Of a stretch of 5,170 nt of DNA, positions 1 through 5,170 are shown piece by piece. The DNA lies in IMG/VR virus record IMGVR_UViG_2778261420_000002, positions 1-5,170 of that record; one strand, 5' to 3'. Source of the DNA: a virus (lineage: Duplodnaviria; Heunggongvirae; Uroviricota; Caudoviricetes). Both the position numbers and the translations under genes were made by a program. The notes below the pieces were generated by a model that searched no databases, was not told where the DNA came from, and saw only the letters and a program-made list of their open reading frames with translations. Positions within the stretch are counted from its first letter, which is position 1. Each line of letters starts with the position of its first letter.

Positions 1-91
1 TAAGTATTCTGCGCAATTTCCCCGACGGTCGCCGGTTCGGTGACGCTTAATTCATTAAACACCACTCTGGCGGTTTCGGTCATATCCTGCT
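1..91 (-). CDS. Partial hypothetical protein, N-terminal ~30 codons (MLKQQDMTETARVVFNELSVTEPATVGEIAQNT...); first ORF downstream of the Q/terminator module, runs off the window edge
   Basis: ATG at 91..89 on the minus strand, preceded by a purine-rich stretch (aaaagggaaaaaggc); frame stays open to position 1. Lies about 130 nt downstream of the minus-strand terminator at 222..250. Does not look like a holin (no hydrophobic segment in the visible part). Confidence 0.35.
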
Positions 92-221
92 GTTTTAGCA
101 TGCCTTTTTCCCTTTTCCGGTTAACGTGACATACCAATACCTCTTGTCGAAAAAGCCAGCAAGCTGAAAGACCGGCATTCGCAACCACCAGCGCATTTAA
201 CGTCCTGTACCGCTTTTCGGG

Positions 222-250
222 CACAAAAAAACCCGCATAAAGCGGGTTCT
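222..250 (-). terminator. Rho-independent terminator downstream of Q (tR'-like)
   Basis: On the minus strand: 7-bp GC-rich stem AACCCGC/GCGGGTT (plus 230..236 and 242..248) with a 5-nt loop, followed by a run of 7 T (complement of plus A225..A231). On the plus strand the downstream tract is only TTCTTT, so it is oriented for minus-strand transcripts. Confidence 0.7.
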
Positions 251-300
251 TTCAGGTGTCCATGTCTGCTATTCGCCTCGCGGTATAGCTTTGCGAAGCG

Positions 301-336
301 TAGCTGGATTGAAACAGTTTATGCGTAAAAAATCAA
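301..336 (-). promoter_or_regulatory. Candidate sigma70 late promoter (pR'-like) immediately after Q
   Basis: Minus strand reads TTGATT (complement of 331..336, overlapping the Q stop codon), a 17-nt spacer, then TTCAAT (complement of 308..313). Predicted start near 300, giving a leader of about 75 nt that ends at the 222..250 terminator, the same layout as lambdoid pR'/tR'. Hexamers match consensus only 4/6 each. Confidence 0.3.
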
Positions 337-887
337 GACATTTTTTGAGCAAACGATTCTCGCATAGGGATGTATAGCGCATATTCAGCAACAGCCAACC
401 AATTAGCAATTCGCTTTTCGCATGTACTAAAACACCATTCCGGGTGAACCTCATTCAACAATTCAGCCATTTTGCGTTTACTCATCCCCCGCCCTTCGTA
501 CCTTTGCCGCAGGATATCAATCAATCCAGGATAACGTGCAAGCGCTTTACTTATCACCCCATCAATGCGTAACGCCTCTGCATCAGTACAGTGAGACAAC
601 CAGCTCTTCTGTCTGCCAGCGATCATCTCTCGCAAGAATGCTTCCAGCTCTGGTTTATCAATCCCTGACTCCCTGATTCTACGCAGGGCTTCATTGATTG
701 CGGTTTTTGTCAGTTTTTTGGATGCCAGCAACTGATTGAACATATTTCCTGGTTTGCCACCACCTATATACGACCAACGCCCCCACATCCGTAATTTCCC
801 CTGGATCCAGACGGCTTCCAGCGTTTTTAGACGTAAATGCTCGCCGCTTTTGCCTGTAATTTCCGGGTATATCATATTTACGATCAC
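333..887 (-). CDS. Phage antitermination protein Q (Q21/Q82-like family)
   Basis: 184-aa ORF with an N-proximal LRMWGRW motif resembling the RWGAW motif of Q-family antiterminators. Sits immediately downstream of rusA and upstream of a promoter-plus-terminator module, the canonical lambdoid arrangement. Start is GTG at 887, overlapping the rusA stop (GTGA); an alternative ATG lies at 875. Confidence 0.75.
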   Translation of the reverse strand: MIVNMIYPEITGKSGEHLRLKTLEAVWIQGKLRMWGRWSYIGGGKPGNMFNQLLASKKLTKTAINEALRRIRESGIDKPELEAFLREMIAGRQKSWLSHCTDAEALRIDGVISKALARYPGLIDILRQRYEGRGMSKRKMAELLNEVHPEWCFSTCEKRIANWLAVAEYALYIPMRESFAQKMS

Positions 888-1249
888 TCACTCTCAATTT
901 TGTAAATCTTCACGCCCAGCCGCCCCCCAGGAACGCGCTGACCGCGCACAATATTGATTTCATCAAACTGCTCGTCGTCTATGAGAAGTCCGGCATGCGT
1001 CAGCGCATCCAGTGGTGCTTTCAGGATATTGTCCAGGTCACGACGACGTTTATCCGGTGGCTCTGCAATAATCTTTATCACCAGCCTTCCGGACAGGTTT
1101 AATTTCAGCCGCTGCTGGCGAACAATAAGCGCCACATCACGGCGATAACGCTCACCGGCTTTTGATACAAAATATGTGCTGCCACGACGTCGCCAGTAAG
1201 TGTTCACCGTTGGCGGGTAAGGCAAAACAAATTCTATGCGTTCAGTCAT
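884..1249 (-). CDS. rusA: Crossover junction endodeoxyribonuclease RusA (Holliday junction resolvase)
   Basis: 121-aa ORF (MTERIEFVLPYPPTVNTYWRRRG...DKRRRDLDNILKAPLDALTHAGLLIDDEQ...) with the RusA-family acidic motif (RRRDLDN) and the typical size. ATG at 1249 directly abuts the upstream gene's TGA stop. Confidence 0.9.
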   Translation of the reverse strand: MTERIEFVLPYPPTVNTYWRRRGSTYFVSKAGERYRRDVALIVRQQRLKLNLSGRLVIKIIAEPPDKRRRDLDNILKAPLDALTHAGLLIDDEQFDEINIVRGQRVPGGRLGVKIYKIESE

Positions 1250-2305
1250 TCATGCTTTCCACTTCAGGACACCCGAATTTCTCGCGTGCATTAAAAAACG
1301 AATCAGCAACAACAGCTGGCTGCCGTGTTTTTCTTCAAAATCTTTTACCCCGGCGTGTAGTTCGCTATGGCATTTACGGCACAGCGGAATAACAAACAAA
1401 TCATCAGCCTTTGTTCCCATCCCTCCCAGTCCATGACCAATGATGTGATGCGGATCATCTGCCTGATTGCCACACGTCATGCATTTCTGCGTTTTTACCC
1501 AGCGCGTGTATACAGGCATCTCTTCCCGTCGTGGTTTCTGGCGCTGGAGATACTGAGCCGGTGACTCCGGATCAACGGCAATGCTGACCACCGTCTTTTC
1601 CTGTGGCGGGTTTTGCTGGTGGGCGTGAGGCAGTAGCGCAATATTTTTTGTGCGCTGCTTCAGCATGCTGGTGGAGGTCTGCTCTCCCGGCACGATGTCG
1701 CTTTCGCGGTATACTGAGCGGATTTTTTCCGCGCGTAATCCCAGCGAACGACGTAATACCGTCTCCGGTAGTGCGTCCGCTACGTTATTTATGGTTGCCC
1801 ACCAGGATAATTCAGCCAGCGATAATTCCCGCTCCTGCGTGCCATTCATTGCGTGGCGGATGACATCAATCATCCATGCTGACAGGTTTTGGTGAGCAAG
1901 CTGCCCGAGTGATTCGGAAGTCTGGTCACGCAGCTGGTTGTCGCAGTGCCAGCACAACACCATTGCACCGGTACCGTAACGATGTATGACGGTTTCGCTG
2001 TGATGGTAGTCACCATGAGGCCACTGGCAGGATTTAATGTGGCGTAACAGCCAGTCAGACAGTGCACCAGCACCACCAGCAGCACGAATCACCCGCTCAT
2101 CGCTGAAAAATGGCAGTAATGATTTATCCTCCGCCAATGGCTGGCGAACGGCAGGAACGACTCCGGACGGCAGACCGCGCATGCTTTTCGGTTCCGGCTC
2201 CACCAGTACACGACCGCTGCGGAATACCTGCATGGATTCACGACCAGGCTTAAGGACCACCAGCCCAAGTTCCGGTACCGGAACAGATCGAAGTAATACC
2301 CGCAC
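1250..2305 (-). CDS. Phage protein with C-terminal HNH-like nuclease motif (resembles DUF968 / YdfU-like prophage proteins)
   Basis: 351-aa ORF. The C-terminus CMTCGNQADDPHHIIGHGLGGMGTKADDLFVIPLCRKCHSELH fits the HNH pattern (CxxC...HH...GG...CxxCH..H). GTG start at 2305 is preceded by GGAGG with a 4-nt spacer. Stop abuts the rusA start. The roughly 260-aa N-terminal part has no motif I recognise. Confidence 0.75.
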   Translation of the reverse strand: MRVLLRSVPVPELGLVVLKPGRESMQVFRSGRVLVEPEPKSMRGLPSGVVPAVRQPLAEDKSLLPFFSDERVIRAAGGAGALSDWLLRHIKSCQWPHGDYHHSETVIHRYGTGAMVLCWHCDNQLRDQTSESLGQLAHQNLSAWMIDVIRHAMNGTQERELSLAELSWWATINNVADALPETVLRRSLGLRAEKIRSVYRESDIVPGEQTSTSMLKQRTKNIALLPHAHQQNPPQEKTVVSIAVDPESPAQYLQRQKPRREEMPVYTRWVKTQKCMTCGNQADDPHHIIGHGLGGMGTKADDLFVIPLCRKCHSELHAGVKDFEEKHGSQLLLLIRFLMHARNSGVLKWKA

Positions 2306-2306
2306 G

Positions 2307-2579
2307 TTACCTCCAGATCCGTTGCTGGAATGTGCGGGACGGACGCGGTGGGCGTTCGGAATAAGGGAGTCTGACGGAAATTATCCAGTGTCGGAAGTCA
2401 GAACTGAGGTCTTTCTGAAACTCGTAACCACGTCTGCGGTAGTTCTGAATCAGCCACTCGGCCTGTTCTTCGGTGCAGGGATTGTGCTGATACCAGTCAT
2501 ATTTGAATGTGTGAGAACGCCGCCCGTGCCGGATGGCAAGGTCGGTATCAGAATTGTGTAATTTGGTTTTGTGCGCCAT
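2307..2579 (-). CDS. Hypothetical phage protein, 90 aa (MAHKTKLHNSDTDLAIRHGRRSHTFKYDWYQHNP...)
   Basis: The listed 108-aa ORF begins at a TTG (2633). The first ATG is at 2579, which I take as the start. The TAA stop at 2307..2309 sits inside the SD of the next gene (GGAGGTAACGTG), indicating translational coupling. Basic, Trp-rich small protein; family not recognised. Confidence 0.55.
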   Translation of the reverse strand: MAHKTKLHNSDTDLAIRHGRRSHTFKYDWYQHNPCTEEQAEWLIQNYRRRGYEFQKDLSSDFRHWIISVRLPYSERPPRPSRTFQQRIWR

Positions 2580-2631
2580 TGGTTGTCTCTGCTGGCGCAG
2601 CAGGTGCCAGTTGTTCAGGCTGGCGTGCGGC

Positions 2632-2661
2632 AATATTGTCTCTGATTTCTGTTGTCGTCAA
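2632..2661 (-). promoter_or_regulatory. Candidate minus-strand promoter for the 90aa-HNH-rusA-Q operon, divergent from the TA promoter
   Basis: Minus strand: TTGACG (complement of 2656..2661, 5/6 to consensus -35), an 18-nt spacer, then AATATT (2632..2637). Would restart transcription downstream of the 3315..3394 terminators. The -10 is weak. Confidence 0.25.
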
Positions 2662-2679
2662 CAGGCAACGTGCTATCAT
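2649..2679 (+). promoter_or_regulatory. Candidate promoter/operator of the parDE-like operon
   Basis: Plus strand: TTGTCG (2652..2657), 16-nt spacer, TGcTATCAT (extended -10, hexamer at 2674..2679). A perfect 6-4-6 palindrome CTGTTG-tcgt-CAACAG (2649..2664) overlaps the -35, as expected for an autoregulatory operator of an RHH antitoxin. SD GAGG at 2705..2708 precedes the ATG at 2715. Confidence 0.4.
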
Positions 2680-2714
2680 CGAATAGTGTTCTATCCTACT
2701 CCTTGAGGTTTACC

Positions 2715-2972
2715 ATGCGTACAACCCAACAATTCAGCATTACATTAACTAACGAGATGGCTGACATGGTGCGCGCCCGTGTGGCTTCCGGTGCCTATGC
2801 TTCAGAAAGCGAGGTCATTCGTGAAGGGCTTCGCGCACTGAATGAGCGCGATAAAGCAATCGAAGCGTGGTTAACGCATTCAGCCGCCCCCTCCCTGGAT
2901 TCAATCCGCAAAAACCCGAACAACGGACGCTCCATTTCACAGGTTCGCGCTGCGATTCGATCCGGGAAGTAA
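2715..2972 (+). CDS. parD: Type II antitoxin, ParD-like ribbon-helix-helix (CopG/Arc/MetJ fold) protein
   Basis: 85-aa product MRTTQQFSITLTNEMADMVRARVASGAYASESEVIREGLRALNERDKAIEAWL... shows the N-terminal beta-strand plus two helices typical of ParD/RHH antitoxins. SD GAGG lies 6 nt upstream. Stop is 5 nt before the toxin ATG. The ORF-track start at 2652 is a TTG and was rejected. Confidence 0.85.
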   Translation: MRTTQQFSITLTNEMADMVRARVASGAYASESEVIREGLRALNERDKAIEAWLTHSAAPSLDSIRKNPNNGRSISQVRAAIRSGK

Positions 2973-2977
2973 TCTGC

Positions 2978-3277
2978 ATGACATATGAAGTCATCATTAC
3001 TCCTGAGGCCGAACAGCAGATAATCAACCTGCACAGATACATAACGGAGAAAGCAGGAAGCGTCATTGCTGACAATTATGCCAATGCGCTTCTTGATTAT
3101 CTTGATGGGTTTTCTACATTCCCGCATCGGGGCAATAAACGCGATGATATTCGCCAGGGGATGCGGGTAACTCATTTCCGCCACAGAACGATTATTGCTT
3201 TTGCCGTTGATGGCAGAAAAGTCTTTATTGTCGGTATCTATCATGGTGGGCAAAGTTATGAAACCGATTTCTTATAA
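2978..3277 (+). CDS. parE: Type II toxin, ParE/RelE superfamily
   Basis: 99-aa product MTYEVIITPEAEQQIINLHRYITEKAGSVIADNYANALLDYLDGFSTFPHRGNKRDDIRQGMRVTHFRHRTIIAFAVDGRKVFIVGIYHGGQSYETDFL matches ParE-family size and pattern (ITPEAE...Y, F.V....V.I..I.H). Immediately follows the antitoxin gene and is followed by a terminator. Confidence 0.85.
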   Translation: MTYEVIITPEAEQQIINLHRYITEKAGSVIADNYANALLDYLDGFSTFPHRGNKRDDIRQGMRVTHFRHRTIIAFAVDGRKVFIVGIYHGGQSYETDFL

Positions 3278-3314
3278 ACTTTTACCCACATCATTCCGGT
3301 GTTAGAATAAACCG

Positions 3315-3338
3315 TCCGCCCCCTCTCTTACTGGCGGA
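3315..3338 (-). terminator. Hairpin, possible weak minus-strand terminator (nin-region type)
   Basis: 6-bp stem TCCGCC/GGCGGA (3315..3320 and 3333..3338) with a 12-nt loop. On the minus strand it is followed by CGGTTTATTC. Weaker than the adjacent hairpin. Confidence 0.3.
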
Positions 3339-3359
3339 TTCGTAGGCTATATAAATCAA

Positions 3360-3394
3360 AGATCCCGGCTCATGTTTGTGTCGGGATCTTTTTT
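3360..3394 (+). terminator. Rho-independent terminator ending the parDE-like operon; potentially bidirectional
   Basis: 8-bp stem AGATCCCG/CGGGATCT (3360..3367 and 3382..3389), 14-nt loop, then TTTTTT (3389..3394). On the minus strand the same hairpin is followed by TTGATTTA, so it may also attenuate the convergent phage transcript. Confidence 0.65.
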
Positions 3395-3401
3395 CGGCGA
3401 T

Positions 3402-3485
3402 TTATCCCCAGCGGCAAATCGAATACACCACCAGCGCAACCGCCATTGCAGTTCCTACCGTTGTGAATGCTTCAGGCCAGCTCAT
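3402..3485 (-). CDS. Small hydrophobic peptide, 27 aa (MSWPEAFTTVGTAMAVALVVYSICRWG), predicted single transmembrane helix
   Basis: Not in the ORF track (too short). ATG at 3485 overlaps the upstream gene's stop (ATGA). GGAGG lies 7 nt upstream of the ATG. Hydrophobic core TTVGTAMAVALVVYSI. TAA stop at 3402..3404 is followed at once by the terminator hairpin. Confidence 0.45.
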   Translation of the reverse strand: MSWPEAFTTVGTAMAVALVVYSICRWG

Positions 3486-3745
3486 TGCCTCGCCTCCAGT
3501 CTCCATACCGCCTGACCAATCCGGCTGGCATGGGTATCTTTGGATACTTTTCCGTCTTTAGCCATCTCTATAAGAATTTTGCGCAAATCTGCCGAACGCC
3601 ATTCTTCATCAGGAAATTCCTTCTCCATTGCCAACCGCAGATTCCAGGTTGCTATCGTGAATGGATATTCACCACCGAGAGCTTTCTCTTGTAGGGCAGC
3701 ACGGGAACGCATCACCTGCAAAACCTTCTCTTTTACATCCATCAT
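3482..3745 (-). CDS. Hypothetical phage protein, 87 aa (MMDVKEKVLQVMRSRAALQEKALGGEYPFTIATWNLRLAMEKEFPDEEWRSADLRKILIEMAKDGKVSKDTHASRIGQAVWRLEARQ)
   Basis: The listed 111-aa ORF has an N-terminal extension. The ATG at 3745 is preceded by AGGAGG with a 4-nt spacer and overlaps (ATGA) the stop of the out-of-frame DUF551 tail, so 3745 is the likely start. Family not recognised. Confidence 0.65.
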   Translation of the reverse strand: MMDVKEKVLQVMRSRAALQEKALGGEYPFTIATWNLRLAMEKEFPDEEWRSADLRKILIEMAKDGKVSKDTHASRIGQAVWRLEARQ

Positions 3746-3864
3746 TTCGCCTCCTGCGGCGGTTCTGGTAGCGGCATCCAGTGTGATGGAATCCACGACG
3801 CACCAGGAATTATCCAACCATCATTAGCATCAGGATGTCCCGGTATGTAAGTCGCCCACTTCAT
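3742..3864 (-). pseudogene. Out-of-frame C-terminal remnant of the DUF551 domain (…WATYIPGHPDANDGWIIPGASWIPSHWMPLPEPPQEAK)
   Basis: Translating the minus strand in the frame offset by one from the 3861..4469 ORF gives a 40-codon stretch ending SHWMPLPEPP, the characteristic C-terminal motif of DUF551 proteins. It ends in a TGA that overlaps the ATG of the next gene. Together with the WISCSERMPDSKTAVLV start of the domain in the upstream frame, this indicates a frameshift in an ancestral single gene. Confidence 0.5.
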
Positions 3865-4469
3865 TCGCAGTCACCTTTCCCGTCAAACTCCCTGGCAACA
3901 AGAACAGCTGTTTTGCTATCCGGCATTCGCTCACTACAGCTTATCCAATCATCCGGAGTTGCCGGGGAGCTGGTTGACGAATTCTTATTTTTCCGAAAGT
4001 TTCCGGCCTGAAACATAGCGGCGCGGTGACACCAGATAATCCAGCCAATCGCCATATCCCATGCCATGTATTCACTACCGCCATTTTTTACCCTGCGGCG
4101 ATCTACAGAATCCCCGAAATGCTTCTCCATAAATAACTCATAGGCAGCCCGTTCATCCGGCACCACCAGCATTGGCGGCGTGGCGTATAGCTTACGGGTC
4201 TGAACACCTGCCTCCTGGCATTTCTCTTCCTCAACAAATCTTTCGAAAGCATATTCCCCGCAATCTTCCCATTCTCCCCATTCATCATATTCTGCATCCC
4301 ACTGGCGATACTGATATGCCACTGGCTCTGCTTCCAGCGATGCCAATACAATTTTGAATAACTCGCCCTCTACTCGCGCCATCCCTGAATTGGGGTGGCA
4401 TTTCGTAATCGCTATTTTTAATTTGGCTTCTTCGATTAATTGTTCTTTTGTTAATTCAGTCATTTTCAT
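3861..4469 (-). CDS. Phage protein with C-terminal DUF551-like domain, apparently truncated by a frameshift
   Basis: 202-aa ORF; ATG at 4469 (MKMTELTKEQ...). The C-terminal WISCSERMPDSKTAVLVAREFDGKGDCE matches the start of a DUF551 domain but stops early; the rest of the domain is in another frame (3742..3864). The N-terminal roughly 160 aa is acidic and Trp-rich. Confidence 0.65.
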   Translation of the reverse strand: MKMTELTKEQLIEEAKLKIAITKCHPNSGMARVEGELFKIVLASLEAEPVAYQYRQWDAEYDEWGEWEDCGEYAFERFVEEEKCQEAGVQTRKLYATPPMLVVPDERAAYELFMEKHFGDSVDRRRVKNGGSEYMAWDMAIGWIIWCHRAAMFQAGNFRKNKNSSTSSPATPDDWISCSERMPDSKTAVLVAREFDGKGDCE

Positions 4470-4559
4470 TACCGCCCTTTCAGGCGGCCTCCTGATGTTC
4501 TGAGGGTGCAGAAATCCCTCCGGTTAAGGATTAAATTTTATTTGCTGTGCTAAATTTAA
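4470..4559 (-). promoter_or_regulatory. Structured intergenic region: two short hairpins and an 8-bp AT-rich inverted repeat
   Basis: Inverted repeat TTAAATTT (4531..4538) / AAATTTAA (4552..4559) with a 13-nt spacer. Hairpin CCGCC/GGCGG (4472..4476 and 4483..4487) lies between an AGGAGG (complement of 4488..4493) and the ATG at 4469. A second hairpin GAGGG/CCCTC is at about 4503..4521. Function not determined. Confidence 0.25.
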
Positions 4560-5015
4560 TTATTCAGTTTTTATTCCTGCTCTCAAAACAGCCTCTGCCA
4601 TTCTGATATCCGGATTTTCTGAAATCATCTTTTCCGGCGAGTCGCAATCACCACCACATTCAGTTATGCGTTCATGACCAAAACGAATTGTGGTTTTGTG
4701 CGCATTAATCATTTGTGTAAGCGCGTCTGTCAATTCTGCAATGCGTTTGTCTTTAACTTCCAGCTCTTTCAGTAAAGCCAGTACGTCAGGATCGCTAACA
4801 TCAACGACGGTTACGCGCGATTTCAGGTAATGTTCATCCGCAAAAGTTCGACCAGTTTTAAAATATCCATCATCCCCCTCACATGTGCAGGCATACACAA
4901 TATGCGTTCTGGGAAATATGCGCTGTATCGACATTTCATCGCCACAAACAGGACATTCCGGCACCTGAATTGGTGAATAACGTTCACGTAATGCCTGGTA
5001 ATTAGTCTTGCACAC
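4560..5015 (-). CDS. Hypothetical phage protein with N-terminal zinc-ribbon-like Cys motif and central coiled-coil-like segment (possibly Ead/Ea22-like)
   Basis: 151-aa ORF. CPVCG...CTC Cys cluster near the N-terminus, heptad-like LALLKELEVKDKRIAELTDALTQMI, C-terminal ECGGDCD. GTG start at 5015 is preceded by GGAGA with a 6-nt spacer and overlaps the upstream ORF by 14 nt. First in-frame ATG is at codon 28, which would remove half the Cys motif. Confidence 0.65.
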   Translation of the reverse strand: MCKTNYQALRERYSPIQVPECPVCGDEMSIQRIFPRTHIVYACTCEGDDGYFKTGRTFADEHYLKSRVTVVDVSDPDVLALLKELEVKDKRIAELTDALTQMINAHKTTIRFGHERITECGGDCDSPEKMISENPDIRMAEAVLRAGIKTE

Positions 5016-5170
5016 TGGCTGTCTCCTGAAAAATCACCGCATGCCCCAGTTTCTCCGCCAGCGCCAGTTCTGCCTTAGCGCCTGCTGACCGCCGCCAGCC
5101 TTTCAGCATGTAAATCGCATCCACACAACGAATCATTGCCATGCAAATATCCATGTAGTGCGGCTGTGTC
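5002..5170 (-). CDS. Partial ORF, C-terminal fragment (…TQPHYMDICMAMIRCVDAIYMLKGWRRSAGAKAELALAEKLGHAVIFQETASVQD); may be a small 50-aa ORF or the end of a longer gene beyond the window
   Basis: Minus-strand frame is open from the window edge to the TAA at 5002..5004. An internal ATG at 5154 would give 50 aa. Overlaps the downstream gene's start by 14 nt, consistent with operon packing. No family recognised. Confidence 0.3.
   Translation of the reverse strand, partial: TQPHYMDICMAMIRCVDAIYMLKGWRRSAGAKAELALAEKLGHAVIFQETASVQD

Follow-up and report, generated by a model that had tools for sequence, protein, structure and literature searches.

Bacteria encode small single-pass membrane regulators such as MgtS, AcrZ, MgrB, PmrR, and KdpF. 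Phages have small membrane effectors as well: HK97 gp15 and T4 Imm act in superinfection exclusion, and the lysis peptides LysM and E bind MurJ or MraY. A third group of small membrane proteins is the type I toxins (Hok/Gef, TisB, DinQ, ShoB, and Ibs), whose translation is typically repressed via an occluded ribosome site. Here we describe a 27-codon open reading frame (ORF) from a virus of the Caudoviricetes (IMG/VR record IMGVR_UViG_2778261420_000002). We analyzed positions 1 to 5,170 of this record, which we call the window. The ORF lies at 3402-3485 on the minus strand and encodes MSWPEAFTTVGTAMAVALVVYSICRWG, which we refer to as the miniprotein. It follows the gene for an 87-amino-acid protein, eaa. 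A preliminary description of the window had suggested that eaa and the peptide form a two-gene module for toxin-antitoxin (TA) function, abortive infection, or superinfection exclusion. We found that the miniprotein is independent of eaa and that the two are not a dedicated pair. Our best reading, which we consider probable, is that it is an autonomous and conserved membrane miniprotein of the early operon that belongs to an undescribed M-[S/T]-W-P-E-A-F family and acts on the host envelope.

The miniprotein resembles MgtS, AcrZ, MgrB, PmrR, and KdpF in having fewer than 50 amino acids, one hydrophobic helix with a small-xxx-small face, and conserved juxtamembrane ends, and also in being overlooked by annotation pipelines. 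Unlike those proteins, which are encoded by stand-alone stress-regulated genes, it is phage-borne and mobile, is present in up to 7 copies, and is coupled to other genes in early operons; it has no sequence similarity to them. Our favored model is by analogy with the short transmembrane proteins of phages that bind a host inner-membrane protein, as gp15, Imm, LysM, and E do, but these are longer (37-91 amino acids or more) and are unrelated in sequence. Also, HK97 gp15 is a moron that is expressed in the lysogen from its own promoter, while the miniprotein gene is embedded in an early operon. The miniprotein shares its genomic block, and the tight architecture of coupled small genes, with the exo-xis/nin genes of lambdoid phages and Shiga toxin (Stx) phages. 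These accessory genes include orf60a, orf61, orf63, orf73, and variants of ea22 (PMC10834534, PMC8614690). One Ea22 variant is described as having DUF551 for its C-terminal domain (PMC10834534).

Over the 601 nucleotides compared, the window shows 100% identity to E. coli B7A, within a lambdoid prophage that is Rac-like. On the minus strand, an Ead/Ea22-like gene is followed by a frameshifted DUF551 gene, eaa, and then the unannotated 27-codon ORF. The ORF starts with an ATG at 3485-3483 and ends with a TAA at 3404-3402. As had been reported from the first inspection, it has a GGAGG Shine-Dalgarno sequence (SD; 3493-3497, minus strand) with a 7-nucleotide spacer (cgaggca), which falls within the last codons of the upstream gene, and an ATGA start/stop overlap (3482-3485, minus strand) in which the TGA of eaa (3484-3482) overlaps the ATG, an arrangement for translational coupling. 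We found no significant RNA structure at the initiation region that would occlude the SD (z = -0.72). An alternative start at ATG 3506, which would give a 34-amino-acid protein, was rejected: the in-frame upstream sequence is not conserved in other contexts, while ATG 3485 is. The protein itself has M-[S/T]-W-P-E-A-F at its N-terminus, a hydrophobic helix that spans approximately residues 6-24, and the conserved sequence YSICRWG at its C-terminus. The mean Kyte-Doolittle hydropathy across residues 6-24 (19 residues) is 1.84, and the usual threshold for a membrane helix is 1.6. This agrees with the earlier view that the peptide is essentially one transmembrane helix.

We have several pieces of evidence that the ORF is a gene. 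First, it is widespread. The 84-nucleotide ORF alone has matches in 1640 of 5426 complete E. coli genomes (about 30%), at 3127 places, with up to 7 copies per genome and 162 places on plasmids. At least 80% of the ORF was matched in 1700 of 1701 records, and 26 of 30 among the matches listed span positions 1-84. With tblastn, the miniprotein was found in 94 phage records. Among these are phages that carry Stx1 or Stx2, further temperate coliphages, and the lytic Vequintavirinae (TH18 and Av-05); P1-like phage-plasmids have the miniprotein as well. When a longer query was used, the blocks of homology opened at the SD or the ATG and closed at the stop codon.

Second, the ORF appears to be under selection as a protein. 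The ratio of nonsynonymous to synonymous polymorphism (pN/pS) across 58 unique 27-codon DNA variants from viral contigs is 0.29, or 0.35 for codons 8-27, which leaves out the first seven codons (these are constrained by the search pattern). The other two sense frames, in the same variants, have pN/pS of 1.0 and 1.35. Replacements in the helix are conservative (V, I, A, L, M, and T), and in-frame deletions of two codons are found. The length is also maintained, with exactly 27 codons in 62 of 66 unique copies (49 that end in TAA and 13 in TGA).

Third, the translation signals are conserved. Among 74 unique copies that were identified via their C-terminal end, 68 have the ATGA, and an SD-like purine run is present at 73 of the 74 junctions; both signals are kept across five unrelated upstream contexts. 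Conserved length and frame, SD spacing, purifying selection, and a predicted transmembrane helix are bioinformatic criteria that have been used for small proteins of E. coli, and all of them are found here. Judging from these sequence comparisons, the 27-codon ORF is a genuine conserved phage gene under protein-level constraint.

Could the real gene be on the other strand? The plus-strand ORF at 3376-3561 (61 amino acids) is open in the window, and its pN/pS is equally low (0.31), so pN/pS by itself cannot tell the two strands apart. What assigns the gene to the minus strand is the start, the stop, and the boundaries of conservation: conservation ends exactly at the peptide's ATG/SD and at its stop. 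The antisense ORF starts in the DNA of a hairpin and a moron, which varies between loci, and ends inside unrelated upstream genes. Because its start and end lie in locus-variable DNA, it is not a single ORF elsewhere. There is no SD before it, and the GC-rich Ala/Val/Gly helix leaves the antisense frame open by composition. We consider the chance that the antisense ORF is the real gene to be close to negligible.

The N-terminus of the miniprotein recurs beyond the enteric phages. In viral contigs that are not enteric (46-67% GC), we found ORFs of 22-34 amino acids that share the first seven residues and have unrelated hydrophobic helices. (The diverged loci are L020, L052, L063, L070, L087, L089, L113, L386, and L388; MSWPEAFFGAVFIICVAWVYVTAIKDKDD and MTWPEAFCSVGWAAALASTAWALAWWAKR are two such peptides.) Most of these ORFs have a strong SD and overlap the upstream stop codon. 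Of 11 distinct non-enteric viral matches to the N-terminal pattern, 7 are hydrophobic ORFs of 22-34 amino acids with an SD. The same pattern in cellular genomes, a scan that served as a null control and not as a census (its chance matches include an Atopobium gene), gave 120 matches; 118 of these are largely due to chance, and 2 of the 118 are short and hydrophobic. We also searched with a second pattern, W-P-E-A-F-F-G-A, that does not require a start codon. It matched five stretches of viral contigs, with four distinct peptides, and all five have an ATG exactly two codons upstream, the ATGA, and an SD. Thus, M-[S/T]-W-P-E-A-F is an N-terminal hallmark that is encoded by different codons in different phages.

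We looked at the surroundings of the diverged loci as well. The surroundings of L063 include a DUF551-like gene, 2.4 kb upstream, and a downstream integrase; close to L087 there are ORFs that, by eye, are RusA- and GcrA-like. We rejected an obligate partnership with DUF551 in distant phages, as a DUF551-like motif was nearby in just 1 of 8 non-enteric loci and in the Vequintavirinae locus L006.

Another explanation for the conservation is that the ORF matters as DNA or RNA, either as a boundary for the exchange of modules or because it is translated merely to hold ribosomes to the end of the operon. It does form an 84-nucleotide island of 80-95% identity with unrelated modules on both sides, and a hotspot for moron insertion lies immediately after it. 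But the ORF has an excess of synonymous changes, the position of its stop is constant while the identity of the stop codon varies, and the replacements in its helix are conservative hydrophobic ones. Nor would this account for the same N-terminal motif, in different codons, in phages of 46-67% GC. We therefore give such a role very little credence as the reason for conservation. (The two roles are compatible: a conserved gene may incidentally supply homology for module exchange at the hotspot.)

We then examined which genes precede the miniprotein. In a sample of 126 loci from viral contigs, the upstream gene always overlaps or abuts it. This gene is of the DUF551 type in 92 of the 126 loci, Ea22-like (a zinc-ribbon/coiled-coil protein) in 12, eaa in just 8, and something else in the other 14. 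Among the 92 DUF551-type loci, the upstream protein ends with ...PLPEPPQEVNQ in 44, and in 48 it carries a C-terminal extension and ends with ...NGLISVEDVLR. The rV5-like phage TH18 has still another gene upstream of the miniprotein. The ATGA overlap is the same whether the upstream gene is DUF551-type, Ea22-like, eaa, or another.

Conversely, we asked what lies 3' of eaa. In the best 80 eaa loci, a gene with an ASCH domain follows in 44 (with a TAATG overlap), the miniprotein follows in 15, and the remainder have other genes or nothing. The 15 loci comprise seven with the 27-amino-acid form and eight with a 24-amino-acid form as in SJ46, MSWPEAFAIVGVAMAIAAIFIFWG; the SJ46-type copies have a TAATG overlap instead of the ATGA. 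Together, these counts imply a recurrent layout: a DUF551-type gene, at most one inserted gene (eaa, for example), the miniprotein, and then variable cargo.

An in-frame stretch at 3745-3817 (minus strand; ...DNSWCVV..TLDAATRTAAGGE-M...) precedes both eaa and the Ea22-like zinc-ribbon gene of other loci (L120 and L178-L181). It is the 3' end of DUF551 read in another frame. The pattern points to an exchange of alternative genes at a single SD/overlap junction that stays constant (CCGCCGCAGGAGG...ATGA).

These data bear directly on the proposal that eaa and the peptide are a dedicated module, in which a membrane toxin would be paired with a soluble antitoxin or regulator, or the two would be an abortive-infection or exclusion pair. 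In the window the two genes are indeed coupled by the ATGA, the locus adjoins TA morons, and the pair recurs in B7A-like prophages and, with the diverged 24-amino-acid peptide, in SJ46-type phage-plasmids. As discussed below, eaa is predicted to have a winged-helix fold, which is common among antitoxins and regulators. Nevertheless, co-occurrence fails in both directions (8 of 126 loci looking upstream of the peptide; 15 of 80 looking downstream of eaa, versus 44 of 80 for ASCH). The preliminary description had proposed checking whether the pair is conserved together across related prophages, and we found eaa and the peptide mostly apart. Also, overlaps of 4 nucleotides are generic in this operon. 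The window has other ATGA/GTGA overlaps at 3742-3745 (DUF551/eaa) and at 884-887 (RusA/Q-like), and because such overlaps are the operon's general style, the ATGA does not by itself mark a dedicated pair. Both genes lie inside a long chain of overlapping, coupled early genes, with no promoter-like site directly upstream of the pair. (A consensus scan found none at 3745-3900 on the minus strand, although such a scan can miss a weak promoter.) Finally, PADLOC had zero matches for eaa, for the peptide (in its 27- and 34-amino-acid forms), or for their neighbors, and neither of the two matched Pfam or NCBIfam. The distribution largely refutes a dedicated module, and we consider it very unlikely.

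What is eaa, then? The gene (3482-3745, minus strand) is an annotated coding sequence in the RefSeq genome of B7A, where its product carries the name "eaa protein", and is ATGA-coupled to the upstream DUF551 fragment. It was said at first that neither protein could be assigned to a known family, and this holds for curated families of known function: eaa matches just phrog_2814 (E = 1.5e-50, positions 1-86 of 86) and has no match in Pfam, NCBIfam, or PADLOC. Its homologs form 63 clusters, all from Enterobacteriaceae, with lengths of 85-88 amino acids. AlphaFold2, run on an alignment of 24 sequences, gave a confident model (predicted local distance difference test, 93.2; predicted template-modeling score, 0.83) with a1-b1-a2-a3-b2-b3 topology. 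When we compared the model to the PDB and BFVD with Foldseek, winged-helix domains appeared throughout the top ranks, including those of RosR, Fur, MecI/BlaI, PapI, STIV F93, kleisin, and ORC (template-modeling scores of 0.6-0.66); the score for an uncharacterized protein from Pectobacterium phage phiTE was 0.84. Unlike those winged-helix proteins, eaa lacks a dimerization domain, and its identity to them is just 6-19% (Foldseek E = 0.02-0.1). A profile search of solved structures with the eaa sequence gave nothing significant. As modeled, eaa is a stand-alone winged-helix protein, and it would probably be a small accessory factor that binds nucleic acids or proteins. (Winged-helix domains also mediate contacts between proteins.) Nothing links the function of eaa to the peptide.

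A different kind of toxin also has to be considered: the peptide could resemble type I toxins such as TisB, DinQ, ShoB, and Hok and depolarize the membrane, for host shutdown or for the timing of lysis, with no specific target. Its 27 amino acids and single hydrophobic helix match those toxins, as does its location in the accessory regions of prophages, often beside hok/mok. Indeed, hok/mok genes are its most common downstream neighbors, so the region tolerates type I toxin genes. But the miniprotein has an exposed, strong SD and translational coupling rather than an occluded ribosome site, and at or near the locus there is no match (E <= 1) to the already described RNAs in Rfam, antisense RNAs included. 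It does not match Hok/Gef or any other toxin family, and the genuine hok/mok genes are separate neighbors. Up to 7 copies are carried per genome without a dedicated antidote, and lytic phages have the gene too. The N-terminal motif is kept even where the helices of different phages are unrelated, and this points to a specific contact and not to bulk membrane damage. Overall, a type I-like toxin is the main rival reading; we consider it unlikely, though less so than a module with eaa.

We return to the miniprotein as an autonomous membrane protein that acts on the host envelope. Its gene appears to come last in the ea/exo-xis or nin region, the block of accessory early genes in lambdoid prophages. 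The miniprotein would be translated by coupling, via the SD inside the upstream gene and the ATGA, to any gene that happens to lie upstream. Here, the upstream gene is eaa, which is located between the usual DUF551-type neighbor and the miniprotein gene. The miniprotein would be made during early lytic transcription, with the rest of the phage early operon, and would insert into the inner membrane with its N-terminus out and its C-terminus in. We infer this orientation from the charges: the N-terminal heptapeptide invariably contains an acidic residue (Glu or Asp) and lacks Lys and Arg, and the C-terminal ends are for the most part basic. The helix may then contact the helix of a host inner-membrane protein, given its face of small residues (G11/A13/A15/A17) and the conserved interfacial ends, WPEAF and YSICRWG. 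The miniprotein would be a factor for host takeover or for exclusion, rather than a toxin that is held in check by eaa. A role in maintaining lysogeny is argued against by the presence of the gene in lytic phages.

Several observations weigh against this reading. The charge bias that would set the topology is weak, and the 24-amino-acid SJ46 variant does not have a basic C-terminus. A membrane-depolarizing role would suit the sequence equally well. The antisense frame, which shares wobble positions with the ORF, has a pN/pS of 0.31, as mentioned above. About 5% of the copies are frameshifted, extended, or lack the start codon. Our sample is mostly closely related E. coli prophages, and because these dominate, the copy counts are not independent events. 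Finally, the peptide string is absent from the literature that we searched and from the supplements of one ribosome-profiling study of enterohemorrhagic E. coli.

More tentatively, the WPEAF miniproteins might be widespread and undescribed phage effectors, whose periplasm-facing N-terminus docks on a conserved inner-membrane machine of the host, for example to block superinfection or to rewire the envelope early in infection. We regard this as possible, but as well short of probable.

The miniprotein is nearly invisible in current databases. In three E. coli records that we checked, including the RefSeq record for B7A, the Prokaryotic Genome Annotation Pipeline (PGAP) does not annotate it. In the tables of E. 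coli matches, the feature under the match is either the upstream gene or none. We found no family for the miniprotein in Pfam, NCBIfam, PHROG, or PADLOC; the best match was to phrog_4612 (E = 0.009, for 2 of 14 family members), and a Pfam search at E <= 10 with the 14 members gave no match, Hok/Gef included. Using phmmer with the extended 34-amino-acid ORF against 1.84 billion representative sequences, we found just 24 proteins, which are mostly miscalled fusions or read-throughs. This small number therefore reflects under-annotation, not rarity. A few GenBank deposits have exactly the sequence MTWPEAFTTVGIAMAVALVVYSICRWG, labeled as a "hypothetical" or "bacteriophage" protein, and a 36-amino-acid version is annotated in one phage record.

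A cluster at 90% identity (P0001-P0015) hides the peptide, as its representative is an unrelated DUF551 protein of 121 amino acids. We rejected the apparent link between the two as a clustering artifact, since the sequences share nothing; the peptide appears to have been chained into the cluster via a mis-framed partial entry, P0012 ("GGESMTWPEAF..."). The miniprotein is absent from bases 1-12000 of phi24B, which include exo-xis, and it is also absent after yfdS (DUF551) in CPS-53 of E. coli K-12. In a modeling paper on exo-xis, a search for terms found no use of "transmembrane", and "membrane" occurs three times, in passages that do not concern an ORF of this kind. Term searches of the exo-xis papers that we covered brought up no membrane ORF.

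Downstream of the miniprotein gene, a terminator-like hairpin (3359-3390, both strands) opens 12 nucleotides past its stop, between it and the convergent parE. The preliminary description had placed a terminator right after the stop. The hairpin is there, but it does not belong to the miniprotein gene. Its folding energies for the minus and plus strands are -17.0 and -22.9 kcal/mol, respectively; z is about -4.7 in each case, and no shuffled sequence did as well. The plus strand has the better T-run, so we interpret the hairpin as a bidirectional terminator that is shared with the convergent parDE. The same hairpin is found with the same ParDE genes in the Stx-type phage ArgO145 and in E. coli 2013C-3252, and loci with other cargo carry other hairpins. 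As the hairpin travels with the TA genes, we assign it to the ParDE moron. This type II TA moron consists of ParD (2715-2972) and ParE/RelE (2978-3277) on the plus strand, convergent to the early operon, and the ParD/ParE(RelE) pair has no PADLOC match. More broadly, the position directly past the miniprotein stop (3402 and downstream, 3278-3401, in the window) is a hotspot for moron insertion (loci L004, L005, L007, L262, and L263). The most common cargo is hok/mok; other loci have parDE, a reverse-strand gene for a DNA-binding protein, or other genes, and every type of cargo brings a terminator hairpin of its own. A promoter-like site at 3281-3308 (plus strand; TTTACC-16-TAGAAT, with an upstream TG) falls past the parE stop and before the hairpin, and no other plus-strand site of this kind is near the peptide locus. 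It could yield a short plus-strand RNA that ends at the hairpin, but promoter-like sites in this region are at the level expected by chance (4 seen, 3.1 expected).

As for the other genes in the window, the DUF551-type gene (3742-4469, minus strand) is split by a frameshift into ORFs of 202 amino acids (3861-4469) and 40 amino acids (3742-3864). The split resembles a 1-nucleotide deletion near 3861-3864. In strain AST19 the gene is intact (240 amino acids), and the B7A copy is a pseudogene according to PGAP. Past the 27-codon ORF and the convergent ParD/ParE come a 90-amino-acid gene, DUF968, RusA, and a Q-like DUF1133 gene. The first of these (2307-2633, minus strand) is 90 amino acids as called by PGAP and 108 as the longest ORF; it belongs to phrog_1212 and has no match in Pfam or NCBIfam. 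We take its position to be that of rem in the Qin prophage of K-12. Just 3' of the Q-like DUF1133 gene, positions 226-299 (minus strand) have a weak, isrK-like match to Rfam that is not significant (21.6 bits against a gathering threshold of 50; E = 0.17). This is probably a late-leader or terminator region.

The miniprotein is an uncharacterized addition to the known class of small single-pass membrane proteins, and not a novel TA, abortive-infection, or exclusion pair. Its gene is in about 30% of complete E. coli genomes, often in multiple copies, and is carried by Shiga toxin phages, yet it is almost never annotated. It marks a hotspot for the insertion of TA morons (parDE and hok/mok), and its N-terminal heptapeptide, which is conserved across very different GC contents, provides a handle for cataloging the family and for hunting for its host target. 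The region where it resides contains accessory early genes that influence the lysis-lysogeny decision and the induction of Stx prophages. Because the miniprotein gene is coupled to the 3' ends of DUF551/Ea22-type genes, it can be lost or uncoupled unnoticed when these are deleted or cloned. If the miniproteins are indeed a family of effectors, then some of the phenotypes that have been assigned to genes of the ea22/DUF551 region of Stx phages would be due in part to the coupled ORF.

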